Part shown: positions 5,534 to 63,194 of the stretch, piece by piece | Position numbering within the stretch: the stretch's first letter is position 1 | Layout: the number at the start of each line of letters is the position of its first letter | Assembly (NCBI GenBank): GCA_018063245.1 | Contig: JAGPBS010000001.1 | Span: 8-64,007, forward strand | DNA length: 64,000 nt | DNA from: Alphaproteobacteria bacterium | Lineage (GTDB): Bacteria; Pseudomonadota; Alphaproteobacteria; JAGPBS01 | Direction of reading: 5' to 3' | Position numbers and translations under genes: made by a program | The notes under the pieces: model-generated | What the model saw: the letters and a program-made list of their open reading frames with translations, nothing else | Told to the model about the DNA's origin: nothing | The model's database searches: none

Positions 5534-5657
5534 CGTCACTCAGAGGGCTCCCACAGGAGCCCGTGGAGTCTTTGCGATATATCAAGAATAATTATTCTTA
5601 GTCATTATATTGATGAGATTCCACACCACCTCTTGGGGAGGTGGCTCTGAATGACGG
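5534..5657 (+). repeat. type-A palindromic element, copy A1
   Basis: CGTCACTCAGAGGGCTCC-N-GGAGCCCGTGGAGTCT...GAGATTCCACACCACCTCTTGGGGAGGTGGCTCTGAATGACGG, with terminal inverted repeats and three internal hairpins. Confidence 0.8.
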
Positions 5658-5674
5658 TATGGATGGTACGTGCT

Positions 5675-5782
5675 CGTCATTGCGAGCCCTTTAGGGCGTG
5701 GCAATCTACTTATTTAGTTTGATGAGATTGCCACGTCAGCTCCGTCTTCGCTCCGCTACGACGAGGCTTCCTCGCAATGACG
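5675..5782 (+). repeat. type-B palindromic element, copy B1 (adjacent to A1)
   Basis: CGTCATTGCGAGCCCTTTAGGGCGTGGCAATCT...AGATTGCCACGTCAGC...CCTCGCAATGACG, with perfect terminal inverted repeats CGTCATTGCGAG/CTCGCAATGACG. Confidence 0.8.
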
Positions 5783-5845
5783 TTCTTTTTCCTTGCCTTA
5801 TTATTGGCGTCCATATATGACGGGTGAGTGAATCGGCTATGTGAC

Positions 5846-7279
5846 CTATAAAGGTAAAGTAATCTTGACTCTAAGGCCGCCTTTAGGACTATCAGAGAGT
5901 TTGATATCGCCGCCGTGTGAGAGAATAATATCGCGTGTGATCGGAAGGCCAAGGCCGATGTTGCTATTTCTTTTTATAGAATCAGTGCTTGCAAGGCGAA
6001 CGAAGGGTTTAAAGACACTCTCTCTATCTTGTTTAGGGATGCCTGGACCATTGTCATCAATGTAAATGATGAGAAATTGAGTGAGCTTCTTTGTGCGGAG
6101 CCAGACGGTATCGCCATAGTCAAAACCGTTGTTGATGAGGTTAATGAGGGCGCGTTTGAGCGCATTCGGTTTGATTGGCATTTTAAAATCAAGATCCGGA
6201 CTCTCATCTGATGAAAAAATGAACTTGCGATGTTGACGTTTCACTTGCGAGGTCAAATCTGTTAGAAAGTTTGAGATTTTGACGGATTGATTTTCCTCTG
6301 TGCCTTCTCCTTTTGCAAAGGTGAGATAGGCATTGATCATCTCTTCCATATCGATAATGTCATGATCGATTTCAGAGACATATTTGTCGATATTCTTTTT
6401 AGAGGCTTGGCTTGATTTGATCATCTCAAGGGCAAGATTCATGCGCGTGAGGGGGGTTCTTAAATCGTGTGAAACACCAGCGAGCATTTCAGTTCGTTGC
6501 TGAATTTGCTGTGTGATTCTTTGTTTCATTTTAATGAATGCATTGGCAGCCTGCCGAACCTCAAGGGCGCCTTTGGGCCTGAAATTTTTATCATCGCGGC
6601 CTTTACCAAAATTGTCAGCCGCATTGGCAAGGCGAATAATAGGCCTGATTTGATTGCGCAAGAAGATGATTGCGATGGTGAAAAGAATGATGGATGAACC
6701 AATCATCCAGACAATGAAAATATAGGTTGTTGAGGTTGAAAGACGTCTTTTATGGATGTCAAAAATCAAAATACCATCTTTGACCTGAACGCTAATGAGC
6801 ATGTGATCTTGCTTTGATTTTGCATCAATTGCGTAGTTTGCATCGAGAGAAGATTCGAGTGCATTGCTGAGGATTTGGGTTGTGAGCGATGGGTAGGTTC
6901 TGATTTTATTTTTGAGCTTTAATTTTTTTTCATATTGCACTTTGATTTTGAAAAATTTTTCAATTTGATCGAACAGTGGTTTTGAGGATTGAGGATTTGG
7001 CAGTTTTTCAAATTCAGAGATTGTATATTCAATTTCTGTAATAAGATGTCCTGCTAATTTTTGAGTGAGTGTTTCCACATGACGAACATAGAAAACATAA
7101 GTTGAAATGAGCTGCAGTAAAATAAGTGGAACAATAATGATGAGTAGCGCTCTTTTAAAAAGAGTGCGAGGTATAAAGGCCTTTAATTTTGAGAATGGAT
7201 CATAAGGTTGGGACAAGCAGAAGGTATCCTTTGTTGCGAATTGTTTTGAGGTAGTTAGGGTGCTTTGGGTCATCGCCAA
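5846..7279 (-). CDS. EnvZ-like sensor histidine kinase (membrane, HAMP + HisKA + HATPase)
   Basis: H-box AGVSHDLRTPLTRM, two TM segments, G-box GLGLPITRDIILSHGG. It overlaps the response regulator 3' end (7200-7279), so the true start is probably downstream of 7279. Confidence 0.85.
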   Translation of the reverse strand: MAMTQSTLTTSKQFATKDTFCLSQPYDPFSKLKAFIPRTLFKRALLIIIVPLILLQLISTYVFYVRHVETLTQKLAGHLITEIEYTISEFEKLPNPQSSKPLFDQIEKFFKIKVQYEKKLKLKNKIRTYPSLTTQILSNALESSLDANYAIDAKSKQDHMLISVQVKDGILIFDIHKRRLSTSTTYIFIVWMIGSSIILFTIAIIFLRNQIRPIIRLANAADNFGKGRDDKNFRPKGALEVRQAANAFIKMKQRITQQIQQRTEMLAGVSHDLRTPLTRMNLALEMIKSSQASKKNIDKYVSEIDHDIIDMEEMINAYLTFAKGEGTEENQSVKISNFLTDLTSQVKRQHRKFIFSSDESPDLDFKMPIKPNALKRALINLINNGFDYGDTVWLRTKKLTQFLIIYIDDNGPGIPKQDRESVFKPFVRLASTDSIKRNSNIGLGLPITRDIILSHGGDIKLSDSPKGGLRVKITLPL

Positions 7280-7895
7280 TTTTTTTACGCAAACGCGTGA
7301 CTAGAATGTCAAAGGAGCGTGAGAAATAATCTGTTTGAAAAGCATTTGACAAGAGATCACGCGAGACCGGTTCTCCATTTTTCTCCCAAAGAATATGCAG
7401 AAACTTTGATTCCGTTTGGGTGAGGGGAATTTCAATCTGATCAATGAGCAGCTTTTGTTGCCCTGGGGAGAATTGCCAGAGGCCTTTTTTCAAGAAAAGA
7501 TTTGTGTGCGGTGCTTTTGTTTGATTCTGCCTTTTCAGAATCGATTTAATGCGGAGCAATAGTTCTTTCGGGTCAAATGGCTTTGCCAGATAGTCATCAG
7601 CGCCTTTCTCAAGGCCAGTGATTCTGTCTTCCGTATTGCCTCTAGCGGTCAATAGAAGGATCGGAACATCATTGTGGAATTTGTTCCGGATTTCATCTGT
7701 GAGTGAAAGACCATCTTGTCCAGGCATGGTGATATCCATAATGATGAGATCAAATCTTTGGTCTTTCAGAATTTTTTTAGCGGCATTTGCATTTTCTGCC
7801 GTTGTGACTAAGTAATCGTGATCAGAGATATAAGTGTGCAGCAGATCTCTCAATCTTTCATCATCATCAATAATTAAAATCGAAAAGTCTGACAT
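7200..7895 (-). CDS. OmpR-family response regulator
   Basis: Receiver domain MSDFSILIIDDDERL...DLIIMDITMPGQDG plus a winged-helix C-terminus. SD AAGGAAAG precedes the ATG at 7895. The ORF track extends to 7976 through a TTG. Confidence 0.85.
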   Translation of the reverse strand: MSDFSILIIDDDERLRDLLHTYISDHDYLVTTAENANAAKKILKDQRFDLIIMDITMPGQDGLSLTDEIRNKFHNDVPILLLTARGNTEDRITGLEKGADDYLAKPFDPKELLLRIKSILKRQNQTKAPHTNLFLKKGLWQFSPGQQKLLIDQIEIPLTQTESKFLHILWEKNGEPVSRDLLSNAFQTDYFSRSFDILVTRLRKKIGDDPKHPNYLKTIRNKGYLLLVPTL

Positions 7896-7909
7896 GTTGT
7901 CTTTCCTTG

Positions 7910-8599
7910 CTAAATATGATACTTCTGCTGTAATGATGCGTAGCTTTTCATCATGATAGGAAGGTAAGTTTTGCACTCGTTATATATCATATTTGCTGTA
8001 GGTTGCTTGTAAGTATGTGAGGTGAGATTGCGATTTTCCATCATTTTTAACCATACTGTTTCATCGTCGATCAATTTGAGAGCAAAGGATTGTTGAAAAG
8101 TTGCTCGAGGAGATTGAACCTCGATCCCTTCTTGATAGCAGATTTTTTTGAGCATTTTCCAATAAAGTTTAAAGCTATATTCAAAAATTTGAATTGTTGC
8201 TTCTGTTAGATAAGGGTGTTTATCTTTATCCATTTGTGAGACATCTTGAAATTTCTCAAGAGCTTCGCCTAGGTCTAAAAAGAGTTCGTACCAGTCATAA
8301 TTATTCTCAACTCTTTTAAAGAGAACAGACTTTGTTTTTTCAATGTCAGCTTTTAGGGCAGAATCTTTCAGTTGATCAAACCTGAGGCAGTCAATTTTTA
8401 AGAGAGTATCAGCAGAATCAATAATATTTCGAATATTTTGCCATTCTTCGCTTGTGGCCTTTGGACAGAGAATAGCCAAATCGATATCAGATCGTTCAAG
8501 AGATGTGTTTTTGGATCTTGAGCCAAATAACCATATTTCATTTACATAGGGAAGGCTTCGGAGACGATAATAGAATTCATATTGTTTGATAGAATGCAT
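7910..8599 (-). CDS. fused Pol-beta-type nucleotidyltransferase + HEPN/KNTase_C-like protein (MNT-HEPN or ANT-like)
   Basis: N-terminal LFGSRSKNTSLERSDIDLAIL matches the GS-x(9-10)-SDxD nucleotidyltransferase motif. The C-terminal helical region carries ENRNLTSH, an R-x4-H HEPN motif. Its start overlaps the upstream gene stop (TAATG), and its stop is 14 nt from the response-regulator RBS. Confidence 0.6.
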   Translation of the reverse strand: MHSIKQYEFYYRLRSLPYVNEIWLFGSRSKNTSLERSDIDLAILCPKATSEEWQNIRNIIDSADTLLKIDCLRFDQLKDSALKADIEKTKSVLFKRVENNYDWYELFLDLGEALEKFQDVSQMDKDKHPYLTEATIQIFEYSFKLYWKMLKKICYQEGIEVQSPRATFQQSFALKLIDDETVWLKMMENRNLTSHTYKQPTANMIYNECKTYLPIMMKSYASLQQKYHI

Positions 8600-9543
8600 T
8601 ATTTTTTCCTTTTTAGAGTTGGTGACTCTGTCATTTCTTGATCAGGGCAGACGTCAAGGAGTCGGATGCCTCTGACAGTTGTTTGATCTGGATCTTTGTA
8701 TTGTGCCAGATAATCTTCTAATAAAACATCTACAACTTGTTTAGGCTCATTTGAGGTTGCATGACGGAAACGAACTTGTCCATCATAGGCTCTGATTGTA
8801 AAACCAAGATGAGAAATCACAAGATCAGTTCCTGTGGACTCTTTCATGTTCCAATTGGGTCTGACAATCCAGAGGATTGTTCCTGTTTCGAGGAGTTTCA
8901 GTTTTTCAGGATTTTGGAGAAGATCTTGAATCGATAAGTAAGGGCAGGAAACGTTTTCACCTTTTAAACAATCGGGCATTTGATTATCATCTATCATTTT
9001 TTGAAGGAGGGCATCCCATTCTTCGCGTGAGTTAACTTTGTATTCTTTTTTGAGCTCATCAAAATGGGACTTTTCAAAAAAGCCCTTTGGGTCAGCAAAG
9101 GATTCAGCATGGTGAACTTGAATTTGCATTTGCTCTGCATAGCGTTCGGTTACGTCTTTGACAAGGCCTTTTTTGATATTTTCAGGAATCCAGCTTTGTT
9201 CAACAATATGATGACGACGTACGAAACCAACTTGCGCATCTTTATATCGAATTTGGTCCATTACACTCCGAATATTTTTCTCAGAAGCCTTGCGTGAGAA
9301 AGCAAGGACTGTCTCAACATAAGTGACACAATCAAACCCATCGTAACGGATTCTGCGGTCAGAATCATTTAATGGATTCTCAACATAAGGTTTTCCAAGA
9401 TACTGAGAGCTAAGTAATTCAATATCACTGCGTATTGAATCTGATGTTTTTTGTGTTGGCATTGAAAATAATCCTTGAATTGTTTTGTAATCGTTGTATA
9501 TTTCAGTAGGAGGCTTGGTTCTCATTTTAAATAATCTTCTCAC
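8599..9543 (-). CDS. hypothetical protein, possible papain/NlpC-P60-like cysteine hydrolase (tentative; family not identified)
   Basis: 314-aa ORF with YDGFDCVTYVETVLAF, a Cys-nucleophile-like motif. First gene of the minus-strand operon. The true start may be an internal Met (9525 or 9462). Confidence 0.4.
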   Translation of the reverse strand: MRRLFKMRTKPPTEIYNDYKTIQGLFSMPTQKTSDSIRSDIELLSSQYLGKPYVENPLNDSDRRIRYDGFDCVTYVETVLAFSRKASEKNIRSVMDQIRYKDAQVGFVRRHHIVEQSWIPENIKKGLVKDVTERYAEQMQIQVHHAESFADPKGFFEKSHFDELKKEYKVNSREEWDALLQKMIDDNQMPDCLKGENVSCPYLSIQDLLQNPEKLKLLETGTILWIVRPNWNMKESTGTDLVISHLGFTIRAYDGQVRFRHATSNEPKQVVDVLLEDYLAQYKDPDQTTVRGIRLLDVCPDQEMTESPTLKRKK

Positions 9544-9553
9544 TTAAGTATAG

Positions 9554-10558
9554 ATGATCGGGGTCATGAAAGTAAATACACCTTCAATGATTAAAATTAG
9601 ACACCTGGATGATAAAGGTGAATGTGTGCCGGGGCCGCTTCCTCAGACACGCAAAGTGAGTGGGAAAAATCATCATCATCAAAAAAGTTACGAGTGGATT
9701 CATCTGGAATCTCTGGATGAAGAAAATATTGCATGGCTTGAAGCAGAATCTAACATTCCGAAAGATATTCTGGAAAGCTTTATTACTGAGGACAGCCGGG
9801 CACGTTTAACGATATTTCCTGAAGGGATCTTTATTGTTTTAAAAGCTCTCAATTATGATCCGGGCCATGATATCGATGAAATGGCATCGATTCGTCTTTG
9901 GATTGATGATAATAAGCTGATTTCATCCCGCGTTCACAGAACAGGGACCTTTGAATACATAGAAGATAAGATTCGCCATAATAAATCGCCCAAGTCAATC
10001 GGGGAGATCATCATTATGATCGTCCAGAAGATTTATGATGAAATGGAAGAAACCATTCATGGTCTTGATGACAAGATTTATAAGATTGAGCAAAAGCTTC
10101 TTGATGATGAGGCTGATTATGAGCCTGGCGATTTTATCTCGTACCGCTTATTGAGTATTAACTTGCGTAAGAACTTGGTGCCTGAAATGTCTGTGCTGCA
10201 TGGTCTTGCGAATAGTGAGTTGACTTTTTTATCAAAGCAGCAGCGTTTGGTTCTAAAAGAACATACAGAATATTTCACTAAGCTGTTAGAGACTCTAAAT
10301 ACTTGCCGCGAGCGTTTGCACTATATCCAAGACGAGCGCGCAAATAAACTAACACAAAAAGTGAACTACAACATTTATGTGCTGTCAGTGATTACGGTTT
10401 TCTTCTTGCCACTCACCTTCTTTACAGGCCTATTAGGGATGAACTTGGCAGGTATCCCAGGAGCAGGCTCAGATAGCTCCTTTATATTCTATACCCTGAT
10501 TCTTGTTGCATTAGGCCTCGTTGAGCTATGGATATTGCGCAAAATTAAATGGGTGTAA
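9554..10558 (+). CDS. corA: CorA-family divalent cation transporter (CorA/ZntB superfamily)
   Basis: Two C-terminal TM helices with GMN signature FFTGLLGMNLAGIP, a long cytosolic N-domain and an acidic loop. The true start is probably MKVNT (9566) or MIKIRHLDD (9587), because the ORF start leaves only 10 bp between divergent genes. Confidence 0.8.
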   Translation: MIGVMKVNTPSMIKIRHLDDKGECVPGPLPQTRKVSGKNHHHQKSYEWIHLESLDEENIAWLEAESNIPKDILESFITEDSRARLTIFPEGIFIVLKALNYDPGHDIDEMASIRLWIDDNKLISSRVHRTGTFEYIEDKIRHNKSPKSIGEIIIMIVQKIYDEMEETIHGLDDKIYKIEQKLLDDEADYEPGDFISYRLLSINLRKNLVPEMSVLHGLANSELTFLSKQQRLVLKEHTEYFTKLLETLNTCRERLHYIQDERANKLTQKVNYNIYVLSVITVFFLPLTFFTGLLGMNLAGIPGAGSDSSFIFYTLILVALGLVELWILRKIKWV

Positions 10559-10741
10559 GCAATACCAGACGCCATTTTGAAATTCTACTGCTTCCTCCTA
10601 CGCACTGCGTGCTTCGGTGGACAGGTCACTCGTTGCTTACCTGACGCTGATTCATTCATTTGAGAGCAGTTATATTGGGCAATATACATCATCGTCATCG
10701 CTGTAAAGGTCACGTAATTCGTTGATGAAAAGATTAAATTC

Positions 10742-10865
10742 CGTCACTCAGAGGGCTCCTGCGGGAGCCCGTGGAGTCTCTGTAGTCTCTCAAAAGAAAT
10801 TGCACTCAGTTGTTAATTAGATGAGATTCCACGTCACCCCTTTTGGGGGTGACTCTGAATGACGG
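10742..10865 (+). repeat. type-A palindromic element, copy A2 (within the 10560..10932 insertion)
   Basis: CGTCACTCAGAGGGCTCCTGCGGGAGCCCGTGGAGTCTC...GAGATTCCACGTCACCCCTTTTGGGGGTGACTCTGAATGACGG. Its interior is nearly identical to copy A6 (63072..63194, opposite orientation). Confidence 0.8.
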
Positions 10866-10913
10866 TTCTCAAATTATGAGTTAATCTCATTATGTATCGG
10901 ATCTCTATCTAAA

Positions 10914-10958
10914 AAATTAAATGGGTGTAAGACACGCTATACACCCATTTAATTTTTT
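10914..10958. terminator. bidirectional rho-independent terminator (16-bp perfect stem AAATTAAATGGGTGTA/TACACCCATTTAATTT, 10-nt loop, A-run before and T-run after)
   Basis: Read directly. It serves the minus-strand gene 10998..11429. Its left arm is a duplicate of the corA 3' end at 10541..10559. Confidence 0.7.
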
Positions 10959-10997
10959 AAACCAAAATCTTGTGATTTTGGTGATATCTTTCGTTTC

Positions 10998-11429
10998 CTA
11001 ATCTTTAACTCCCATGAACATGTGCACAACAATACCGCCCACCATAAACACAACAGCCATTGCAAGAAGCCAAACAACTGTTAAGCCAAAGGCGTGGACA
11101 GACATTGTATAGTCAAAAAGACCATAAGCCGCAAATAACAACCAGACATAGAAGCCAAACATGACACCCTTCATTATACCATGATGATCAACAGCATGAT
11201 GAAAGTGATGATAAAGATATGTATAGACATAACCCATGACGAATGCCGCAAAAGGCATGCCATACATTACCATGGTATCACCTGCGGGACGCATAAAGCT
11301 TGCATAATCTGTTAGCATATGTGCGAAGAAGTGGTCAAAGAAGACCCACCACACAACGTAGAACACGAGGCCAAAGCCAAGGCTGGAAAGAACCATTTTA
11401 CCTACTGGATAGTTGGACATAGAACTCAC
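10998..11429 (-). CDS. hypothetical polytopic membrane protein with His-rich loop (HHFHHAVDHHG)
   Basis: About 4 predicted TM helices rich in F/Y/M/W. No family recognised. Confidence 0.5.
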   Translation of the reverse strand: MSSMSNYPVGKMVLSSLGFGLVFYVVWWVFFDHFFAHMLTDYASFMRPAGDTMVMYGMPFAAFVMGYVYTYLYHHFHHAVDHHGIMKGVMFGFYVWLLFAAYGLFDYTMSVHAFGLTVVWLLAMAVVFMVGGIVVHMFMGVKD

Positions 11430-11714
11430 CCCCTCTCCAAGACCATTGCATAATGCCTCTTTTCGGTGATTTTAGCTTTAAGGCTTGTCTACGCTCCTCA
11501 AATATGTCCATATATTCTGCGGTGCTTATCTGCGCCTTTCCTAAAACTCTCTCGAAAATAATCTATTATGCACGCGTCTTTCCCGTTTTCTGGAGGGATT
11601 CGATGCTACCATCTCCCCCTCTTAGTTATATTATATATCATTTTTCATAAAATAACAAATATACCCCTTTTTGTATCATGGGTATATCTTTGATTTTTTT
11701 GTATGTTTTATGGA

Positions 11715-12185
11715 TTATCGTTTTTTGTAAATGGCTTCGCCATAAGATTGTAGAATTTCTTTAAGTTCTTGATTTTCAAATGTATTTATAGATGAGTTGA
11801 TAGTGGATTTATCGGCTTCTGAGAGAGGGTTGGTCTTGATTACATTTTGTTTTAGAGGATTATTTTTGAGGCTTTTGGGATTTGTCATGATTTGTTTGAG
11901 TTTGATAGATCCGACAGCCTGATACCCCATGTAAGAATTGATTTTATCAATTAGGTAAGGGATTTGATATTGGCATTCTGTTGCAAAGTAAGTTTGGACA
12001 GCCAAAGTGACTGTTGCATTGCCTCTTTCGTCTTTCTTGAAATCTATTTTTTCAATCGAACATTTGCTTGCAAAGTCAGTGCCCATGACATTTGGCCAAG
12101 CGATAATTAAGTTACCAAAATCAACACCGATCTTTCCCATTGCATTTTTGGCCAATTTTGGCATGATAGTCGATAGAGCTTTCAT
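11715..12185 (-). CDS. DUF721 / DciA-like protein
   Basis: ~156-aa basic protein, divergent from mutY with only 30 bp between start codons. This position is typical of the DUF721 (COG5389) gene in alphaproteobacteria. The family call is from context plus size and charge, not a strong motif. Confidence 0.45.
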   Translation of the reverse strand: MKALSTIMPKLAKNAMGKIGVDFGNLIIAWPNVMGTDFASKCSIEKIDFKKDERGNATVTLAVQTYFATECQYQIPYLIDKINSYMGYQAVGSIKLKQIMTNPKSLKNNPLKQNVIKTNPLSEADKSTINSSINTFENQELKEILQSYGEAIYKKR

Positions 12186-12215
12186 CTTCTTTCATCATTT
12201 TATAGTGTTGTTATC

Positions 12216-13295
12216 ATGAATCACCAGACCGTTGCCTCAGCACTCTTAGATTGGTTTGATCAATCTGGGAGAAGTTTACCATGGCGCGCTCAAAAAGAGC
12301 AGACAAAAAATCCGTATTTCATTTGGTTATCTGAAATTATGCTTCAGCAAACAACTGTTGCAACTGTTTATGCCTATTTTAATAAGTTTACTCAAAAATG
12401 GCCAACGGTTTTTGATTTGGCAAAAGCTGATATTGATGATGTTTTGAGGGAGTGGGCAGGTCTTGGTTATTATTCCCGCGCTCATAATTTACATAAATGT
12501 GCAAAGGTCATTGTCCAAAAATTTGATGGTATCGTGCCGAGTCTTGAAAAAGAACTTCTTGAGCTGCCAGGTGTTGGTCCTTACACAGCAGCAGCCATCT
12601 CTGCAATTGCCTATGATCAGCCAAATACAATTGTTGATGGAAATGTTGAAAGAGTGATTTCAAGATTGTTTTTGATTGAAGAGCCTTTGCCAACCGCGAA
12701 GCCTTTGATTCGTGAAAAAGCAATGACTTTAACGCCCAAAGTGCGGCCTGGCAATTATGCTGAAGCGATCATGGATTTGGGAGCAACTGTTTGCAAACCT
12801 CAAAAGCCCATGTGTATCTTATGCCCTCTACAGTCATTTTGTAAGGCAACAAAAGTTGGTAGACCAGAGGATTATCCAAGGCGTCTACCAAAATCAGAAA
12901 GACCTGTGCGAAAAGCAACACTATTTTGGGTTGAGTCGGCAGGGCATATCATTTTGAGAAAAAGACCTTTAAAGGGCCTGCTGGGTGGGCTGTGGGAGTT
13001 GCCTTCAACACCGTGGGATACAAAGACATATAAAGCTTATGCTGACAATCCAGATATGGCTCCATTTATGCCCGTTCAAGATGAGGCAATTAAATGGATT
13101 GCTCTCGATGGGTTTGTGACACATCAATTTACGCACTTTCAATTAGAGATGACAATTTTGAAAACAACACTGAACAAACGATCTCAAGAACATGAGTGGG
13201 TGCATTTGCAAAATCTTGATCAATATGCTCTGCCGACGATGATTCAAAAGGCATTAAAATTTGCAAGAAATTCATACGGAAAGATTGGTTCTTAA
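12216..13295 (+). CDS. mutY: A/G-specific adenine DNA glycosylase MutY
   Basis: HhH-GPD region YFIWLSEIMLQQTTVATV, and a 4Fe-4S cluster loop CKPQKPMCILCPLQSFC (C-x6-C-x2-C-x5-C). C-terminal NUDIX-like domain. Confidence 0.9.
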   Translation: MNHQTVASALLDWFDQSGRSLPWRAQKEQTKNPYFIWLSEIMLQQTTVATVYAYFNKFTQKWPTVFDLAKADIDDVLREWAGLGYYSRAHNLHKCAKVIVQKFDGIVPSLEKELLELPGVGPYTAAAISAIAYDQPNTIVDGNVERVISRLFLIEEPLPTAKPLIREKAMTLTPKVRPGNYAEAIMDLGATVCKPQKPMCILCPLQSFCKATKVGRPEDYPRRLPKSERPVRKATLFWVESAGHIILRKRPLKGLLGGLWELPSTPWDTKTYKAYADNPDMAPFMPVQDEAIKWIALDGFVTHQFTHFQLEMTILKTTLNKRSQEHEWVHLQNLDQYALPTMIQKALKFARNSYGKIGS

Positions 13296-13415
13296 GATTT
13301 CCTTGACAATTAGGTTAATATCTTATTAAAATGAGTGGCTATTGAACAGGTATTGACCCTAGATAGCCATGTATTTTAGACGGCAATATTGATATTAATT
13401 TGAAGGACATCGAAG

Positions 13416-14240
13416 ATGAAAAAGACATTACCAATTTTATTGTTAAGCTCAACCATTTTGATGAGCGCTTGTACAGATTTAGGCACTTATTCTGCATCAA
13501 GAGAAATTTACGGTGTTGAGGAATCAGTTTGGTATCAGATGACGCCAGATCAACAGAACCGTGTGATGAATAATTACTTAGCTGAGCAAAAGCGTAAGCA
13601 AAGAGCGCTTGAGCGTCAAAGAGAACAAGATCGCCTTTTTAATTTGAAACTTGAAAATGATCGTCTTAGAAGAGAAAAGGAAGATCACAGAAATGCTGAA
13701 GCAAGACGTGTAAAGTTTGAAAAAGATGCACTTGAACGTCAAAGAAGAGAGCTTGAAGATGCAAGAAGAGACAGTCAAAGACAAACGAGAGCGAATGAGC
13801 ATCAAAGACGTGAGTTGATGAGACTGCAAGATCAACAAAGATTTGAAGAGCAACAAAGAGAAAATCAGCGTCGCGTTCAAAGAGAACAACAGCAACAAAA
13901 TGAAGCAGCGGCAGCTCAAAGGGCACAAGATGAGCGTCGCACAATTGAGCTTCAGCAGAAAGAATTTGATCGCATTGCTCGAGAAAATGCACAACGTCAA
14001 CAGCAACAGCAACAACAAGTCCAGCAGCAACGTGAAGCAGCAGAAAGAGCTCAAAGAGAGCAAAGTGCTATTGAAAGACAAAGAGTAGAATTAGAGCGCA
14101 TTGCACGTGAACATGCAGCTCGTCAGCAACAGCAGCAAGCGCCTCCGGCAGCTGCCCAAGCTCCTGCCGCTGGTCAAGATGAAAACCATCAGCTGCTCGA
14201 AGAGTCTGAGATGTTTGGCACAATGTTTAAAGAAGAGTAG
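13416..14240 (+). CDS. lipoprotein with a long E/R/Q-rich predicted single alpha-helix / coiled-coil
   Basis: Signal peptide plus lipobox LMSAC. About 200 aa of ERQRRELEDARR, QQQQQQQ and REQ repeats. RBS GAAGGA precedes the start. Confidence 0.6.
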   Translation: MKKTLPILLLSSTILMSACTDLGTYSASREIYGVEESVWYQMTPDQQNRVMNNYLAEQKRKQRALERQREQDRLFNLKLENDRLRREKEDHRNAEARRVKFEKDALERQRRELEDARRDSQRQTRANEHQRRELMRLQDQQRFEEQQRENQRRVQREQQQQNEAAAAQRAQDERRTIELQQKEFDRIARENAQRQQQQQQQVQQQREAAERAQREQSAIERQRVELERIAREHAARQQQQQAPPAAAQAPAAGQDENHQLLEESEMFGTMFKEE

Positions 14241-14255
14241 GATCTGTTAATTTTC

Positions 14256-14409
14256 CCTCACTCAGAGGGCCCGTGGAGTCTCAGCAATCTCACCATTTAG
14301 TCATCCTGAACTTGTTTCAGGATCTGGAGATGCTAAAATAAATTCAGCATGACGAGTTAGGTCTTGATAAGATTCCACGCCACCCTTAAGGGGTGGCTCT
14401 GAATGACGA
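14256..14409 (+). repeat. type-A palindromic element, copy A3 (longer; contains an extra internal palindrome)
   Basis: CCTCACTCAGAGGGCCCGTGGAGTCTC...ATCCTGAACTTGTTTCAGGAT...GCATGACGAGTT...GATTCCACGCCACCCTTAAGGGGTGGCTCTGAATGACGA. Confidence 0.75.
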
Positions 14410-14564
14410 TTTTCTAAATTGTTGTTACTGAACGATGAAGGCATATGCAATGACAAAGTGTGCGTTGTTAACAGTTCTTGCCTTTTTAAGATTGTAGCCT
14501 TAGGCGCAATCTGCTAGACTGCCTATGGATACCATTCTTCAGCTAATATAGGAATAAAAGCTTT

Positions 14565-15884
14565 ATGTTCAATTACTTAAAGGTCTATAAAGATCCTCGA
14601 TTGCTCGCTATTGCTTTCTTGGGTATTTCAAGCGGATTTCCTTTGATTCTTGTTGGGGCAACGCTTGATCGTTGGCTTGTTGAAGAAGGGTTGTCAAAAA
14701 CAGGGATTGGTCTTTTTTCTTTTGTTGCTTTGCCTTACATGCTCAAATTTTTATGGGCGCCTTTAATGGATCACATTCACTTGCCTTATTTTGCCAAAAG
14801 ATTTGGCCAAAGGCGAAGCTGGTGCGTGCTCTCACAGATTGGATTGTTTTTCTCGGTTGTTTTACTCGGCACCTCAGATCCTGCAAATCATATATTCCAA
14901 ACAGCTTTTTTTGCCCTACTGGTTGCCTTCTTTAATGCGAGTCAAGATATTGTGATTGAAGCCTTTCGTGTTGAATCTTTAAGCGATCGCCAGCAAGCTG
15001 CTGGTGCTGCGAATATTGTTTTAGGTTACAGAATTGGTATGTTGATATCAGGTGCTGGAGCGCTCTATATGGCTGAGTTTCTATCTTGGCAGGCTGTTTA
15101 TTCACTTGTTGCCTGTGTTAGTTTTGTTGGGATGATCACCATTTTTTATTCTAAAGAACCGGAGGTTTCACCTGATAAGATGATTCGAGAAGAATCTGAT
15201 TCTATGGGTGGTTTTTTGAAAAAAGCTGTGATTCTTCCTTTTGCGGATTTTATGAAAAAACCTTGTTGGGTATGGCTTTTACTCCTTATTGTTTTGTATA
15301 AGGTAGGCGAAGTTTTGCTTGCTAAGATGGCTATGCCTTTCTATACAGAGATTGGTTTTAGTAAGACAGAAATTGCGAGCGTGTCAAAATTTTATGGCCT
15401 CTTTGCCACGATTATTGGTGGGTTGATTGGAGGGGCGATTGCAAGTCGCTTTGGTATTTTGCGATCAATGATGATTTGTGGTATTCCTCAGATGTTGACG
15501 AACCTTTTATATGTATTGCTTGCATACATTGGTTATGATCTGAAAATGCTGATGATTGCAGTGACGCTTGATAATCTAACAGCGGGGATGGCAACGGCTT
15601 GCCTTGTGGCTTTGATGTCACGTCTTTGCACAAAGGGGATTGCAGCCTCGCAATATGCCCTGTTTTCATCTTTCACGGGTATTAGTCATAAATATTTTGG
15701 AGCCTTTAGTGGCTATTTAGCTGATCACATGGCTTGGACAACTTATTTCTTGATCACAACCTTTGCTTGTCTTCCAGGTCTTTGTTTGTTGGGGTGGCTG
15801 ATGGTTAGAAATCACCAGATGCGGTTTTTGCCGGTTGTGATGCCTAGTGCTGAGACCAAAGGGCCTATCACAAGATTTAAATAA
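14565..15884 (+). CDS. ampG: muropeptide permease AmpG (MFS)
   Basis: 439 aa with 12-14 TM helices. Characteristic N-terminus LLAIAFLGISSGFPLILVGATLDRWL. RBS AGGAATAAAAG. Confidence 0.8.
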   Translation: MFNYLKVYKDPRLLAIAFLGISSGFPLILVGATLDRWLVEEGLSKTGIGLFSFVALPYMLKFLWAPLMDHIHLPYFAKRFGQRRSWCVLSQIGLFFSVVLLGTSDPANHIFQTAFFALLVAFFNASQDIVIEAFRVESLSDRQQAAGAANIVLGYRIGMLISGAGALYMAEFLSWQAVYSLVACVSFVGMITIFYSKEPEVSPDKMIREESDSMGGFLKKAVILPFADFMKKPCWVWLLLLIVLYKVGEVLLAKMAMPFYTEIGFSKTEIASVSKFYGLFATIIGGLIGGAIASRFGILRSMMICGIPQMLTNLLYVLLAYIGYDLKMLMIAVTLDNLTAGMATACLVALMSRLCTKGIAASQYALFSSFTGISHKYFGAFSGYLADHMAWTTYFLITTFACLPGLCLLGWLMVRNHQMRFLPVVMPSAETKGPITRFK

Positions 15885-16397
15885 TTAATCCTTATCGCGG
15901 TCATATTTTTGGTAGCGATCTGGTTTTTCAGGAACGCGCTTGTGATAGCGATTTTTGTCTTCATTCCGTTTCTCATTCTGTATTTTTGTATTTTCATCGC
16001 TGAGGTAACGACTTTTGTCGCGGCGTCGTTGTTTTTGATCTTCTTCTTTTTGAAGCTCAGCTGGTGTCTTTGGTTTTTCTTTGGGCGCGAATGGGTCATA
16101 AGCTTCATAAGGGTTTTGTTTCTCAAACGGATCAGCCACATTGTTATCTTGGATTTCTTGCTCTGCTTCAGGGTCAAGGTCTTCAAGACCGCTTGGATTT
16201 TCCTCAGGTGCTTTTTGGGTAGGTATCTCTAATCCACTTGGGTTTTTCTCTTCTGTTGTTTTTGGCGCTGGTTTTTCAAGACCACTTGGATTTTCTTGTT
16301 TTGGCTTTTGATCATCTGCTGTTTCATTCGCAAAAAGATTTTGAGCCGTGCTAAAAAAGGTTGTTGCAGTCAGGAAAAGGAATAGGGATTTTTTCAT
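15885..16397 (-). CDS. secreted protein with three ENPSGLE repeats and a K/R/D/E-rich C-terminus
   Basis: Signal peptide MKKSLFLFLTATTFFSTAQNLFA, so the start at 16397 is more likely than the ORF-track 16457. The repeats are KQENPSGLE, EKNPSGLE, EENPSGLE. Its stop codon directly abuts the ampG stop (convergent, 0 bp gap). Confidence 0.55.
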   Translation of the reverse strand: MKKSLFLFLTATTFFSTAQNLFANETADDQKPKQENPSGLEKPAPKTTEEKNPSGLEIPTQKAPEENPSGLEDLDPEAEQEIQDNNVADPFEKQNPYEAYDPFAPKEKPKTPAELQKEEDQKQRRRDKSRYLSDENTKIQNEKRNEDKNRYHKRVPEKPDRYQKYDRDKD

Positions 16398-16585
16398 GGG
16401 ATTGCTCTTCTGGAAAGATGTTAGGCATATTATACAGATGAATCGTATATAAACCATTACCTCTCATAAATATAAACCTTCTGCATTGTCAATCTTTCTT
16501 TATTTATTTCTATTAAAATGAAAAAGAGAAAGTCTTTTTAATAAGTGCGGTGCTTGTTCATCGAAGATACGAGGAGGAGAGCCTT

Positions 16586-36248: not shown

Positions 36249-36338
36249 CGTCATTGCGAGCCCTTTAGGGCGTGGCAATCTCATTGTAATTAAGAAAGAA
36301 GATTGCCACGTCAGCCTCCGGCTTCCTCGCAATGACGG
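36249..36338 (+). repeat. type-B palindromic element, copy B2
   Basis: CGTCATTGCGAGCCCTTTAGGGCGTGGCAATCTC...AGATTGCCACGTCAGCCTCCGGCTTCCTCGCAATGACGG. Confidence 0.8.
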
Positions 36339-41288: not shown

Positions 41289-41362
41289 AGAAGAACTCCT
41301 TTATTGATTTTATTTGTTATTTGGTATTCTCTTTTTACGAAATGTTCACCCTGAATGCAATT

Positions 41363-42097
41363 TTATTTTTTTCGTTTTGCGGGGGTGGGTTTTTTTGTTC
41401 GGCGACCTGTGAGAATATTGATTGTCTCGACCGCAAGCGAGAAGCCCATCGCAAAATAGAGATAGGCTTTTGGAATCTTAAGGCTGAAGGCATCAATCAC
41501 AAGTAAGAATCCAATCATCAAAACAAAGGCAATGGCTAGAATTTTTAAGGTCGGGTACTTATCAATAAAGTGAGCAATTGAGCTTGATGCAAAAACCATG
41601 AAAAACATGGCAACCGTCATTGCAACAATAATGATGCCGATATTATTGGTAAGACCAATCGCCGTTGCGACAGAATCAAATGAAAAGACAAGATCAATGA
41701 TAATGATTTGAAATATTGTGCTCATCATACCACCCTTGAATTTTCTGAGGTCTTGATCGTGCTGTTTTGTGATTTCTTCATGAAGGCTTGTCGTTGCTTT
41801 GCTAATGAGGAAAAGACCACCAGCTAACATTAACAAATCGCGGGCTGAGAAATGCATATCCAAAACTGAAAAAAGAGGCGCTTGATGTTCCATCACCCAC
41901 CCAATGCCCATGAGCATGATGATACGCATAATCAAAGCAAGAGACAGACCAATAAGGCGGGCTTTTCGGCGATCTTCTGCGGGCAAATGCTGAATGACAA
42001 GGGCAATAAAAATAATATTATCAATCCCTAAAACAATTTCAAGGAAGCTGAGGGTTAAAAAACTTGCCCATATATTGGCGTCAAATAAAAAATCCAT
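41363..42097 (-). CDS. TerC-family integral membrane protein
   Basis: SFLEIVLGIDNIIFIALVIQHLP TerC signature, ~7 TM helices. Confidence 0.8.
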   Translation of the reverse strand: MDFLFDANIWASFLTLSFLEIVLGIDNIIFIALVIQHLPAEDRRKARLIGLSLALIMRIIMLMGIGWVMEHQAPLFSVLDMHFSARDLLMLAGGLFLISKATTSLHEEITKQHDQDLRKFKGGMMSTIFQIIIIDLVFSFDSVATAIGLTNNIGIIIVAMTVAMFFMVFASSSIAHFIDKYPTLKILAIAFVLMIGFLLVIDAFSLKIPKAYLYFAMGFSLAVETINILTGRRTKKPTPAKRKK

Positions 42098-47635: not shown

Positions 47636-48353
47636 TTGGGAAGATCAAGGCATATTACTCAATGTGAAGCCACACGGCGAATCATCAGCCATCTTATCGA
47701 TTCTCACAAAAGAAAAAGGGCGCCATCCTGGTTATGTCAAAGGCGCTTTATCCAAGAAAGACAAGGGTCTCTATCAGCCAGGGAATTTGGTTGATGTTTT
47801 CTGGCAGGGAAGACTTGAGGAGCAATTGGGATTTTTCCGCGTTGAGATGATTACCAATTACGGCGTGAAATATTACGATGAGCCTTTAAAATTGATGGCG
47901 CTTAATTCTGTCTGCGCGCTTGCGCATTCTTGCCTGTCAGAGCGTTTTCCATTCCCGCAGATTTATGAAGGGCTTAAGGCCTTCTTGCTTTTGATGGAAA
48001 CAGAAGATTTTTGGCCAGCTCTTTACGTTCATTTTGAAAAGAGTTTGCTCCATGCGCTTGGATTTGGTTTGGACTTAGAAAGGTGCACGGTTTGTCAGCG
48101 TGAGGATGATTTGATTTATGTGAGCCCCAAAACAGCACGTGCTGTTTGTAGAGCTGATGGTGAGCCTTATAAAGAAAAGCTATTGCTTCTGCCGCCCTTT
48201 TTGCAAAAAGGAGGGGCCTATCATGAAGAGGATTTGATAGATGGTTTAAGGCTGACGGGTTATTTTTTAGGAGAGCATATCTTTACGCATCTCTATAGTG
48301 GCGAGCCATTTGCGCGTAGTCAATTTGTGCAGATGTGTCATACTAAGCAATAG
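47628..48353 (+). CDS. recO: DNA repair protein RecO
   Basis: N-terminal OB fold, C-terminal CTVCQ...C zinc motif. Overlaps the tlyA stop. Confidence 0.8.
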   Translation: MSDWEDQGILLNVKPHGESSAILSILTKEKGRHPGYVKGALSKKDKGLYQPGNLVDVFWQGRLEEQLGFFRVEMITNYGVKYYDEPLKLMALNSVCALAHSCLSERFPFPQIYEGLKAFLLLMETEDFWPALYVHFEKSLLHALGFGLDLERCTVCQREDDLIYVSPKTARAVCRADGEPYKEKLLLLPPFLQKGGAYHEEDLIDGLRLTGYFLGEHIFTHLYSGEPFARSQFVQMCHTKQ

Positions 48354-48411
48354 GCATTAAATAGCACATTTAAAGCGGTGATTAGAAGTATCAGTTGCAG
48401 TATTGACAAGT

Positions 48412-48532
48412 CGTCACTCAGAGCCCTCCTTAGGAGGGCGTGGAGTCTCTTGGCGTTAACAAATGGGTGCATCTTTTTGAGACTTTGCAGAGATTCCACG
48501 CCACCTCTTATGGAGGTGGCTCTGAATGACGG
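48412..48532 (+). repeat. type-A palindromic element, copy A5
   Basis: CGTCACTCAGAGCCCTCCTTAGGAGGGCGTGGAGTCTC...GAGATTCCACGCCACCTCTTATGGAGGTGGCTCTGAATGACGG. Confidence 0.8.
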
Positions 48533-48595
48533 ATTCTAATGTTACGATGCTTTTAATGCGAGAAAATTTTATAGAAAGTGAATGAATTTGATATG

Positions 48596-48629
48596 AAAAA
48601 AACCCCAGATCATAAATCTGGGGTTTTCC
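48596..48629 (-). terminator. rho-independent terminator of mucR (stem CCCCAGAT/ATCTGGGG; T-run on the minus strand)
   Basis: AAAAAAACCCCAGATCATAAATCTGGGGTTTTCC read directly, immediately 3' of the mucR stop (48643-48645). Confidence 0.7.
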
Positions 48630-48642
48630 TAAATAGTGTTTA

Positions 48643-49077
48643 TTACGCTGTTACAACTTTTTTCTTACGACCACCGTTTTTGCCGAGACCGAGGTCGCGT
48701 GCATAACGTGAACGAACTTCAGCGTAGTTTGGTGCAACCATTGGGTAGTTCGGTGGAAGATTCCAACGACGACGATACTCTTCTGGGCTCATGTTGTAAG
48801 CTGAACGCAGGTGACGCTTAAGCATTTTAAGTTGTTTGCCGTCTTCAAGGCAAATGATGTAGTCTGGTGTTACTGATTTTGCAATCGGAACTGCAGGCTG
48901 TTTGCCTTCAGGTGCAACGTGCGAACCTGAACGAATTGCTTTCAAGCTTTGGAAAACAATGTTTACGATCTCAGGAATGCTCTCAGGAGAAACCTGGTGG
49001 TTTGCAACATATGCGCTAACAATATCAGATGTAATTAATAAAATATCTGAAAAATCACGATTTTGGTTATCTGTCAT
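48643..49077 (-). CDS. mucR: MucR/Ros-family zinc-finger transcriptional regulator
   Basis: 144 aa. A Ros/MucR C2H2-like zinc motif is present (…CLEDGKQLKMLKRHLRSAYNMSPEEYRRRWNL…), and the N-terminus matches the family (ITSDIVSAYVANH). Confidence 0.85.
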   Translation of the reverse strand: MTDNQNRDFSDILLITSDIVSAYVANHQVSPESIPEIVNIVFQSLKAIRSGSHVAPEGKQPAVPIAKSVTPDYIICLEDGKQLKMLKRHLRSAYNMSPEEYRRRWNLPPNYPMVAPNYAEVRSRYARDLGLGKNGGRKKKVVTA

Positions 49078-51856: not shown

Positions 51857-51944
51857 CGTCATCGCGAGGAGCGATAGCGACGTGGCGATCTTGTATAGTG
51901 AGATGAGATTGCCACGGCGCAACAAGGAGCGCCTCGCAATGACG
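51857..51944 (+). repeat. type-B palindromic element, divergent copy B3
   Basis: CGTCATCGCGAGGAGCGATAGCGACGTGGCGATCT...GAGATTGCCACGGCGCAACAAGGAGCGCCTCGCAATGACG. Confidence 0.7.
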
Positions 51945-55974: not shown

Positions 55975-56093
55975 CGTCATGGTGAGGAGCGACTTGTCGC
56001 GACGTGACCATCCAGAAATCTTTCAATAGATGCCGTTCGTTGATCCTTCAGGGCTGGATCCTCGCGGCCCGCCTTGCGGGCCTCAGGATGACG
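55975..56093 (+). repeat. divergent GC-rich palindromic element (type-B-related termini)
   Basis: CGTCATGGTGAGGAGCGACTTGTCGCGACGTGACC...GGATCCTCGCGGCCCGCCTTGCGGGCCTCAGGATGACG. Inverted termini plus internal GGCCCGC-CTT-GCGGGCC hairpin. Confidence 0.6.
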
Positions 56094-60658: not shown

Positions 60659-60933
60659 AATCTCCTTAAAATAATAGGCTCACTCTAACGGAACTGAGGA
60701 TAAATTTCAAGTATAATATTGTTAATTTTAAAAACTGTAATTTTTTTGTTGATTTTTTATTTAATGTATGGTAATTCTATAAATAATAACGCAAATGAAT
60801 AATCAGTATTGAAAGTTATTTTGAGTTATATCAACGTAAGATTTTTATTTTTAGAGATCTGACTGGAAACCAAACTGAAGAGTGAGAAGCTGGAATTTAA
60901 CATTCTTCAATAAGTTTAAAACTGGAGACTAAA

Positions 60934-61437: not shown

Positions 61438-61449
61438 ACGGAGGGGCGA

Positions 61450-61875: not shown

Positions 61876-62280
61876 GTAATTGAGAATTGTCACAACACCC
61901 ATGGTGAGAACCCAAGAAATGGTAGGCGTAAGCTCTGCATCTTGAATCAGATAGTGAATGGATGTCGAGCTTATGACCATGAAAAAGATCTGGCTCAGGA
62001 CAAAAAACACAAATTGGTACCTGTGTTTTTTCTGTACTTTGAAGGACCATTTACGGTTCCAATGATAGCTCCAGAGCATGGCAAGAGCATAGCTTAATCC
62101 TTGTGAGATAAAAGGAGCATAAGTTAAAGAATAGGGCGCTGTAAAGTGATAGGTCACAATAAAGATGATATAGGCAAGTAAAGTGTTACTTGCGCCAATC
62201 AAGATAAAGCGCGAAAAAGTTTTGGGACAAAAAAAGGAATATTCCTTTTTAAGAATTCTGTTGATGGGATCAAGGGTCAT
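61837..62280 (-). CDS. GtrA-family small membrane protein
   Basis: 147 aa with 4 TM helices. The N-terminal FFCPKTFSRFILIGASNTLLAYIIF fits the GtrA-like pattern. Confidence 0.6.
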   Translation of the reverse strand: MTLDPINRILKKEYSFFCPKTFSRFILIGASNTLLAYIIFIVTYHFTAPYSLTYAPFISQGLSYALAMLWSYHWNRKWSFKVQKKHRYQFVFFVLSQIFFMVISSTSIHYLIQDAELTPTISWVLTMGVVTILNYLALKMLVFKEAK

Positions 62281-62288
62281 GAGATCTA

Positions 62289-63029
62289 TTATACAAAATT
62301 ATTCTTGGCTTGTCGAATTTTTTGAAATTCTTGAATGGATTCTGCTTTTAAAAAAGGATTGGTCAAGAGCTCTTCTGCCAAGGTAAAGGGGATGCTTGGC
62401 TGATGTTTTTCTCTCAGATTTGTCACTTTTTTCATTCGGTCTTGGACAGCGATGTCAGCTGGATCAAGATGGAGAACAAATCGTCCATTGGCAAGAGTAT
62501 ATTCATGACCGCAGTAGATTTGCGTGTCATGGGGCAGGTTTTTGATTTTTTGAAGCGATTCAAACATTTGCTCATAAGTGCCTTCAAAGAGCCGCCCGCA
62601 GCCCATGCCAAAGAGAGTATCACCTGAAAAGAGAATGTGGCGGAGAGGCTCATAGAAAAGGATATGCCCAAGCGTATGGCCTGGTGTTTCAATGACCGTG
62701 AAATTTGCATCGCCAAAGGCAAGCTGATCGCCCTCTTTGACAGGATGGGTGATTTGAGGAATTTGTGCCTGATTGAGCGCAGGACCAAAGATTTGTGGGC
62801 GATAGAGCCTCGCGAGTTTTTCAACGCCGCCAATATGATCAGAGTGATGGTGCGTTAAAAAAATATGCGTCAGGGTGAGGTGATGTTTTGTGAGATACTC
62901 ATTCGCTGTATCAAAATCACCAGGATCCACAAGAGCTGTGAGGGTATGGGACTTGTTGTGTAAGAGGTAGATATAATTATCCTCAAAGGCTGGAATCAAG
63001 GTAATGGTGAAAGAGGGCGCGTTTGTCAT
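62289..63029 (-). CDS. gloB: hydroxyacylglutathione hydrolase (glyoxalase II)
   Basis: Metallo-beta-lactamase motif LTHHHSDHIGG plus the GloB-type C-terminus (GHEYTLAN). Confidence 0.85.
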   Translation of the reverse strand: MTNAPSFTITLIPAFEDNYIYLLHNKSHTLTALVDPGDFDTANEYLTKHHLTLTHIFLTHHHSDHIGGVEKLARLYRPQIFGPALNQAQIPQITHPVKEGDQLAFGDANFTVIETPGHTLGHILFYEPLRHILFSGDTLFGMGCGRLFEGTYEQMFESLQKIKNLPHDTQIYCGHEYTLANGRFVLHLDPADIAVQDRMKKVTNLREKHQPSIPFTLAEELLTNPFLKAESIQEFQKIRQAKNNFV

Positions 63030-63071
63030 GAGGACGGTCTCGTGGGTTAATGTGAGTTGCTATAAATTAAC

Positions 63072-63194
63072 CGTCATTCAGAGCCACCCCATAAGGGGTG
63101 GCGTGGAATCTCAGTTAACAATCAATTGAGTGCAATCCCTTTTTAGAGAATGCAGAGACTCCACGGGCTCCTGTAGGAGCCCTCTGAGTGACGG
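63072..63194 (-). repeat. type-A palindromic element, copy A6 (inverted orientation)
   Basis: CCGTCATTCAGAGCCACCCCATAAGGGGTGGCGTGGAATCTC...GAGACTCCACGGGCTCCTGTAGGAGCCCTCTGAGTGACGG. The reverse complement of its interior closely matches A2. Confidence 0.8.

Follow-up and report, generated by a model that had tools for sequence, protein, structure and literature searches.

We analysed a window of 64,000 nucleotides (64 kb) from an alphaproteobacterial metagenome-assembled genome (GenBank assembly GCA_018063245.1, contig JAGPBS010000001.1, positions 8 to 64,007 of the forward strand), in which ten palindromic elements are dispersed among the genes. A sequence-only reading had sorted them into two related families, type A and type B, with one GC-rich relative. 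All ten are present where that reading had placed them, and the termini and hairpins quoted for them agree with the sequence. The left end of A3 is the exception: it reads CCTCAC instead of CGTCAC, and its first, upper hairpin is collapsed to GGGCCC. Two hairpin units in inverted orientation make up each element, a dimer whose outer ends carry the CGTC tags (an 'HH' dimer). The tags point outward in all ten elements and in a further pair nested within A3, and all of these lie at gene 3' ends. The elements are as follows.

5534-5657, + strand: type A dimer A1; left unit 5534-5574 (ACTC/GAGT), right unit 5616-5657 on the - strand (ATTC/GAAT), with an AT-rich spacer between them; kept at 99.6% in a close relative (locus L125).
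5675-5782, + strand: type B dimer B1; left unit 5675-5709, right unit 5720-5782, the latter with a long, 36-nt upper region; both lower stems ATTGC/GCAAT.
10742-10865, + strand: type A dimer A2; units 10742-10782 and 10824-10865; flanked by the stop codon of a CorA-like gene (10558) and a perfect 20-bp hairpin (10910-10959); 100% conserved in L125-L127.
14256-14409, + strand: type A dimer A3; degenerate left unit 14256-14284, right unit 14369-14409.
20160-20198, no strand assigned: A6, a 'double-foot' of two left-type ends fused via the upper hairpin, CGTCACTCAGAG-GGCTCC-TA-GGAGCC-CTCTGAGTGACG; a perfect 39-nt palindrome with a fold of -21.2 kcal/mol.
36249-36338, + strand: type B dimer B2; units 36249-36283 and 36298-36338; conserved in L122 and L123.
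48412-48532, + strand: type A dimer A4; units 48412-48452 and 48492-48532; between the RecO stop codon and a conserved bidirectional terminator.
51857-51944, + strand: type B heterodimer B3; left unit 51857-51893 (ATCGC/GCGAT), right unit 51904-51944 (ATTGC/GCAAT).
55975-56093, + strand: GC-rich heterodimer; left unit 55975-56016 (ATGGT/ACCAT), right unit 56054-56093 (ATCCT/AGGAT, with a CCA tail).
63072-63194, - strand: type A dimer A5, reversed; ATTC/GAAT unit 63072-63113, ACTC/GAGT unit 63154-63194; downstream of the minus-strand gene 63286-63771.

In all, the elements account for about 1.7% of the window. The terminus that they share, CGTCAYNNNGAG, occurs 20 times, compared with 0.39 ± 0.58 times in dinucleotide-preserving shuffles. 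Nineteen of these occurrences are element ends; the remaining one, at 24454, is intragenic and probably due to chance. Counted over the ends of the elements, 19 read CGTCA and one reads CCTCA.

Gene context was judged on a crude map of the open reading frames (ORFs) of the window. All ten elements are intergenic on this map, each downstream of at least one stop codon, which bears out the earlier placement at gene 3' ends and in convergent gaps. Of the eight convergent gene pairs, three leave no room for an element; each of the other five has one. A1 and B1, 17 nt apart, share the convergent gap between genes 4928-5500 (+) and 5846-7279 (-). In A1-A5, the ACTC-type unit is the one proximal to the co-directional upstream gene in five of five cases (two-sided p ~0.06). 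A Logan assembly contig of the same organism (L001) ends within B2.

The surroundings of A2 hold a 19-nt direct repeat, AAAATTAAATGGGTGTAAG, at 10541-10559 and 10913-10931 (372 nt apart), which brackets the element together with about 250 nt of flank. The first copy includes the CorA-like stop codon and the second is the left arm of the perfect 20-bp hairpin. The two repeats may be what is left of a larger insertion that had brought A2 along.

The core of A3 contains a nested dimer of simpler CGTC-type hairpins, at 14299-14327 (+) and 14327-14355 (-), which was absent from the earlier list of elements. It was spotted with a generic scan for GTCA plus a 5-bp stem, which is permissive (41 matches vs 25 in shuffles). 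There is no spacer between the two hairpins: one reads AGTC-ATCCTGAA-...-TTCAGGAT-CTG and its partner CGTC-ATGCT...AGCAT-CTC, with lower stems ATCCT/AGGAT and ATGCT/AGCAT. The same pair recurs, inverted, in an element beside a GNAT gene of a close relative (L122, ~17653-17714).

The hairpin unit and its conservation

The units share one layout: an unpaired CGTC tag, a lower stem of 4-5 bp, an internal loop, a variable GC-rich upper hairpin and a 3' C. The internal loop is a conserved 3x3 arrangement, G.G / A-T / G.G, in which GAG stands opposite GTG. When 21 unit sequences were folded separately as DNA, 17 gave this arrangement of unpaired tag, lower stem, loop and upper hairpin. The main units measure 33-63 nt overall and have an upper hairpin of 4-8 bp separate from the lower stem; we refer to them as two-storey units. 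The first pair of the lower stem is A-T in all units, and the second is T-A, but C-G in the left units of type A. Tails read CT(N) or CCA, with C always as the first base, and in all clearly folded units the palindrome is preceded directly by GTC and followed directly by C. Types A and B are related to each other, as their first description had suggested.

Differences between the two halves of an element are compensated within each half. The halves of type A read CGTC-ACTC...GAGT-CT on the left and CGTC-ATTC...GAAT-CT on the right, so that ACTC/GAGT is combined with ATTC/GAAT; in the same way, B3 combines ATCGC/GCGAT with ATTGC/GCAAT and the GC-rich element ATGGT/ACCAT with ATCCT/AGGAT. Between the termini, these differences result in C.A or G.T mismatches. 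Pairing is thus compensated inside the halves and not between the ends, which points to the local hairpin as the unit of conservation. All eight units of the window that match the scaffold pattern introduced below have fully complementary lower stems (5/5), in four different stem sequences. The upper hairpins also vary between copies with compensatory changes, as in GCCACCTC/GAGGTGGC, GCCACCCC/GGGGTGGC and GTCACCCC/GGGGTGAC.

The elements had first been described by paired termini around three nested hairpins. This shape is indeed the minimum-energy fold of the whole strand, and five of the six dimers folded are far more stable than expected (z = -5.9 to -8.1). The 12-nt termini and inner 10-nt arms nevertheless make better sense as arms that pair locally within each half. 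In the GC-rich element the whole fold is weak (z = -1.4) and both halves fold locally. We conclude that the long-range three-hairpin model is secondary to the local hairpin unit.

The elements belong with the CGTC-tagged palindromes

The elements had been likened to repetitive extragenic palindromes (REPs) or Rickettsia palindromic elements (RPEs) without being assigned to a named family. The likeness is sound and a family can be named: they are CGTC-tagged REP dimers. Di Nocera, De Gregorio & Rocco 2013 (PMC3733652) divide REPs into a GTAG-tagged and a CGTC-tagged superfamily. In their account, CGTC-tagged REPs are found mainly in Alphaproteobacteria, have a stem that opens with A and T and a short tail (consensus CCA), lie downstream of ORFs and form for the most part tags-outside dimers, often heterodimers, with spacers of 20-100 bp. 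The superfamily takes in the Neisseria dRS3/NTS repeats as well as Rickettsia RPE-4 (CGTC-4) and RPE-6 (CGTC-1).

The window's elements resemble the families CGTC-1 to CGTC-4 of that paper in several respects. The CGTC tag (with TGTC and CCTC variants) is unpaired and precedes a palindrome that opens with an A-T pair; the tail is short and starts with C; the dimers carry their tags outside and are frequently heterodimers; and they lie downstream of ORFs, between convergent or co-directional genes, in an alphaproteobacterial genome. The difference is in the stem. The published families have a stem of 8-9 bp and a loop of 4-5 nt, while the main units of the window have a lower stem of 4-5 bp, the GAG/GTG loop and an upper hairpin; these units may overlap with one of the variants listed in the paper. 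Only the pair nested in A3 resembles the simple published form, its unit 14299-14327 folding as an 8-bp stem with a 5-nt loop.

Rickettsia provides a further parallel, with RPE-4 and RPE-6 as members of CGTC-4 and CGTC-1 and a locus of a Rickettsia endosymbiont (L023) that carries a CGTCATTGCGAG...GTGGCAATCT unit of the kind found in the window. RPEs are known for in-frame insertion within protein-coding genes, whereas all ten copies in the window are intergenic. No annotated non-coding RNA family was matched in Rfam at the gathering threshold across the whole window, and a literature search with the raw sequence GTCATTGCGAG gave chance matches in primers only.

The scaffold recurs in many phyla

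The joint A/B scaffold CGTCATTGCGAG...GTGGCAATCT was sought in a collection with each species represented by a single genome. It was found in at least 120 loci, from Bacteroidota, Chloroflexota, the candidate phyla radiation (CPR), Atribacterota, Desulfobacterota, Rickettsiales, Bradyrhizobium, Coxiellaceae and others. Copies thus occur outside the window as well; restriction to it would have spoken against the first description. For the whole collection, the expectation from chance was estimated at about 1600 matches. Among the matches listed, however, the degenerate positions spell precisely CGTCATTGCGAG-x-GTGGCAATCT in nearly every case, and an inverted partner lies 70-250 nt from about half of them; they are clearly not due to chance.

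We examined 159 units among the matches listed, and the figures that follow refer to these. They contain 133 different upper sequences, and the upper hairpin reaches at least 4 bp in 67 of them, compared with 12 after shuffling. An inverted partner end lies within 260 nt of 84 units, and the other 75 are single. One upper sequence, GA-GCGNAGC-GAC, is frequent, its motif being present in 20 units. It includes d(GCGNAGC), an unusually stable DNA mini-hairpin, and the motif would fit structure at the level of DNA better than at the level of RNA.

The left unit of type A is far less common: the metagenome collection yielded 18 loci (GC content 31-59%). The heterodimer of an ACTC left unit and an ATTC right unit recurs in unrelated metagenome contigs (L135, L138, L149 and L150).

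In other organisms, two-storey units flank genes for small GIY-YIG proteins

An enzyme that acts on the Neisseria CGTC repeat is known. Chenal 2025 (PMC11893778) reports that the 94-aa protein SsnA, a GIY-YIG nuclease with a single domain, binds and cuts NTS (CGTCATTCCCGCGMAVGCGGGAATCYRG). The enzyme works on single-stranded DNA (ssDNA) only and on one strand only, nicks a few nucleotides upstream of the tag and does not bind RNA; the three bases before the palindrome weigh most for cleavage and the C after it for binding. The same paper describes ssn genes as typically flanked by such motifs and the NTS-ssnA-NTS layout as resembling an insertion sequence (IS). The bases that matter to SsnA, GTC before the palindrome and C after it, are those kept in the units of the window.

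The 935 ORFs found no more than 1.5 kb from a unit at the 120 listed loci were compared all-against-all. The sole recurrent neighbour specific to the elements was a GIY-YIG protein of about 95 aa (PF01541); four other recurrent clusters that were scanned are housekeeping genes (S1, ABC ATPase, RNase III and epimerase). Two-storey units adjoin or bracket this gene at nine loci (L006, L029, L055, L075, L077, L137, L152, L153 and L175), of which six share lower stems with the window. The gene lies inside a dimer in L006 and L077, where the forward unit is upstream in gene orientation and the reverse unit follows the stop codon. It lies between two short flanking dimers in L029 and L075; in L055 it is preceded by a left unit and followed by a full dimer. 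In L137 it is bracketed by type-A-like ACTC units, and this was the only one of the 18 type-A-like metagenome loci to hold a GIY-YIG gene. In L006, removing about 355 internal nucleotides from the copy with the gene gives the gene-less dimers of the locus.

A reciprocal profile search with these proteins returned 39 loci in IMG/VR. A forward unit was found upstream in 18 of them, a reverse unit downstream in 17, and both in 14. The units are mostly canonical NTS (CGTCATTCCCGCGAAGGCGGGAATCCA), and are two-storey at L152, L153 and L175. Flanking by canonical NTS ties these GIY-YIG proteins to the published Ssn family; their membership of cd10448 is supported solely via homologues flanked in this way. 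In other organisms, a single-domain GIY-YIG family of about 95 aa, flanked by NTS at some loci and by two-storey units at others in an IS-like order of motif, gene and motif, extends the likeness to the NTS-SsnA system of PMC11893778. Searches of PDB, NCBIfam and PADLOC with the proteins gave nothing specific. The family is large, with at least 8000 proteins at E <= 1e-10. Many Ssn-like proteins sit on contigs of 0.5-1.5 kb, as assembly-breaking repeats would produce.

The order of events can be turned around, with the dimers coming first and the GIY-YIG gene acting as a homing-endonuclease-like invader of their spacers, the dimers being the targets of its product. The position of the gene within the dimer spacer in L006 and L077, together with the spacer ends shared by gene-less dimers, would suit such an invasion, and GIY-YIG domains are typical of homing endonucleases (the matches here are weak). 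Internal deletion of the gene fits the same data equally well, however, and an invader leaves the arrival of gene-less dimers at new sites unexplained. We regard this order of events as improbable, and as a sub-variant of the explanation preferred below more than a true alternative to it.

A counterpart of such a pair of repeat and nuclease is the system of REPs, bacterial interspersed mosaic elements (BIMEs) and REPINs mobilised by a REP-associated tyrosine transposase (RAYT, or TnpA-REP) in E. coli and Pseudomonas. The general design is the same: a tetranucleotide is conserved at the 5' end of each hairpin unit, and the units form inverted doublets in extragenic DNA that a small dedicated nuclease recognises as ssDNA hairpins. 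The particulars differ, with a tag of CGTC and not GTAG (GT[AG]G) and a GIY-YIG protein in place of an HUH-Y1 enzyme, and no RAYT is associated with the elements of the window. No Y1 transposase was found among the called genes of the relatives' loci, and no Y1 protein recurs beside units in the 120 loci listed, as the GIY-YIG protein alone does. The authors of PMC3733652 likewise state that CGTC repeats "apparently lack a dedicated transposase" and that no tyrosine transposase gene is flanked by them. Mobilisation by a RAYT is therefore very unlikely here.

Conservation, turnover and IS110 insertion in relatives

NrdR and SHMT proteins identical to those of the window are recorded from an alphaproteobacterial metagenome-assembled genome, and a Ros/MucR regulator is present; sub-threshold NCBIfam matches that had suggested Legionellales were set aside for this reason. 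A close relative is represented by a 2.07-Mb contig (JGI 3300056850, Ga0558718_00008), which shares 95-100% identity with the window. On this contig A1, B1, A2, A3, B2, B3 and the GC-rich element are all in place. In more distant relatives the complement differs: L129 lacks both A4 and B3, whereas L131 lacks A4 only and has B3. These differences indicate that the elements turn over, slowly. L131 carries an extra canonical NTS-like 'double-foot' unit, TGTCATCCCCGCGAAGGCGGGGATGACA, at ~7472-7510 (orthologous to ~48620-48640 of the window), just after the RecO/MucR terminator; it is missing in the window, L128 and L129.

At the A4 site (48330-48660 compared with L129 and L131) the window has 251 extra nucleotides, only 121 of which are A4, and the intergenic DNA of the relatives has diverged. 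Either A4 brought flanking DNA with it or this stretch was remodelled later; both are possible. The C-terminus of RecO differs here as well (241 aa in the window vs 245 aa in L129 and L131).

The earlier description had also compared the elements to miniature inverted-repeat transposable elements (MITEs), that is, internally deleted copies of an IS with a DDE transposase, moved via terminal inverted repeats. Inverted termini of 12 nt, a length of 90-150 nt, variable cores and presence or absence between relatives are all features of MITEs. This part of the description found no support: neither target-site duplications nor a parent with a DDE transposase could be found. No duplication can be seen at the ten copies, nor a clean one in the comparisons at the A4 and B3 sites, and the sole relatives of the elements that bear cargo carry a GIY-YIG gene and no DDE transposase. 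Differences between the ends are compensated within halves and not between ends, and single half-units are common elsewhere (75 of the 159 units from the matches listed). The IS110 element of the close relative, described next, has unrelated ends and merely inserts into units. A classical MITE is thus a highly improbable explanation.

The JGI relative contains two 99.9%-identical IS110-family elements of 1571 bp (L122 16042-17612 and L128 5723-7293), encoding a 362-aa DEDD_Tnp_IS110 transposase; the element is not present in the window. Both copies are inserted directly after the CGTCA of type A units, one in A4 and the other beside the GNAT gene at the A6 site, where the relative holds a different, longer element in addition to the IS110 insertion. 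Compared with the window, the ~28 kb between the two copies (window 20128-48416) has the opposite orientation, an inversion. The shared insertion point makes CGTC units specific IS110 targets here, and by way of the IS copies the units mark the inversion breakpoints. Coxiella QMITE2, a target of IS1111, offers a parallel, since there too an IS110/Piv-type recombinase specifically targets repeat units; QMITE2 differs in carrying a GTAG REP and direct repeats of 7-11 nt. In Neisseria, dRS3 is the integration site of the Nf prophage.

Two differences between the window and its relatives concern other sequences. L122 has an extra 712-bp segment at 8236-9000, with a 219-aa ORF (without a recorded Pfam match) and a flanking direct repeat of ~29 nt, TTCACCC..TGCAATTTTATTTTTTCC; in the window this repeat is present only once, at ~41343-41371, and the ORF is missing. 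The gene at 36448-37761 (-) encodes a leucine-rich repeat protein, with at least seven tandem 84-nt repeats (28-aa leucine-rich repeats) at 36513-37184. Its orthologue in the close relative has 460 aa compared with 437 aa in the window, and the number of repeats therefore varies between strains.

A possible RNA-level role in 3' untranslated regions

Some REPs of E. coli protect mRNA 3' ends. Co-transcribed hairpins could in the same way terminate transcription or shield mRNA 3' ends from exonucleases, and such a role would explain the conservation of the elements. Every copy lies downstream of a stop codon, and A2 and A4 are probably transcribed, because each lies between a stop codon and a terminator-like hairpin. 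The whole-element folds are very stable (z = -6 to -8), and the five type A dimers all have the same orientation to the upstream gene.

Several results speak against such a role as the explanation of the elements. Besides the lack of an Rfam match, a terminator consensus scan of positions 5000-21000 (which covers A1, B1, A2, A3 and A6) listed only A6, weakly and with a weak T-tract. Separate terminators lie beside A2 and A4, and that of A4 is kept in relatives without A4. The unpaired CGTC tag, the G.G mismatches and the 3' C match the determinants of a nuclease that acts on DNA only, and elsewhere the units occur singly and flank ssn genes. An RNA-level function is for these reasons an unlikely primary explanation, and any effect on the upstream mRNA could be a by-product or secondary effect.

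Interpretation

The elements are probably non-autonomous, selfish CGTC-tagged REP dimers, a structural variant of Ssn-related motifs (SRMs), and neither RNA genes nor classical transposons with terminal inverted repeats. By analogy with NTS as described in PMC11893778, an Ssn-family GIY-YIG nuclease of about 95 aa would bind the hairpin as ssDNA and nick it some nucleotides upstream of the tag. The 90-150-nt dimers of the window would then be gene-less derivatives of modules of the type unit-ssn-unit. They would accumulate in 3' untranslated regions and convergent intergenic gaps because insertions there do little harm, and may be maintained or spread in trans by an Ssn protein encoded elsewhere in the genome.

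Several points weigh against this explanation. No GIY-YIG ORF was found in the 64-kb window, and none is among the genes called at the syntenic loci of the relatives, which leaves a cognate nuclease for this genome unproven. The published SRM pattern, HGTCWYN(0-2)YYVSBRHN(0-5)WNVSBRGN(0-2)RNCYNB, has 0 matches in the window (0.16 in shuffles) and 0 around the nine ssn genes flanked by two-storey units; the same implementation gives 2-3 matches around NTS-flanked ssn genes. That the pattern misses two-storey units and that the nuclease gene of the window's genome was not located are the differences from the NTS-SsnA system of PMC11893778, and the units also fall outside the stem and loop lengths of PMC3733652, though they may overlap with a variant listed in either paper. 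The copies in the window are about 70-86% alike and are fixed in place in close relatives, which argues against recent mobility, and reconstruction at A4 and B3 yielded neither a clean empty site nor a target-site duplication. Template-switch repair of quasi-palindromes yields compensatory changes without any selection, and the compensation seen in the upper hairpins is for this reason weak evidence of selection. Finally, we know of no demonstration of transposition catalysed by Ssn.

A more far-reaching reading is that two-storey units form a separate Ssn specificity class across many phyla, and that unit-ssn-unit modules and gene-less dimers are an autonomous and non-autonomous transposon pair moved by a GIY-YIG nuclease. 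We consider this unlikely. Recognition by the nuclease would be confined to the tag, the lower stem of 5 bp, the G.G/A-T/G.G loop and the 3' C, leaving the upper hairpin free to vary, and the autonomous modules would be about 500 bp long. If the specificity class is real, published counts of Ssn motifs would be substantially too low; if the transposon pair is real, it would be a bacterial transposition mechanism without precedent.

Within this window alone, the non-autonomous CGTC-tagged REP dimers that we favour are ordinary selfish repeats. Their wider interest is that a repeat thought to be unnamed finds its place in a known system, and that this system reaches further than its published descriptions: many phyla have a hairpin design which escapes the published Ssn-motif pattern and is still associated with Ssn-type genes. 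It supplies new candidate pairs of substrate and enzyme for nucleases specific to single strands, a class proposed as ssDNA tools, and a concrete case of CGTC repeats as IS110 targets at the ends of an inversion. The findings also bear on how CGTC repeats spread, a question on which the two earlier papers report no dedicated transposase (PMC3733652) and only an IS-like layout (PMC11893778).

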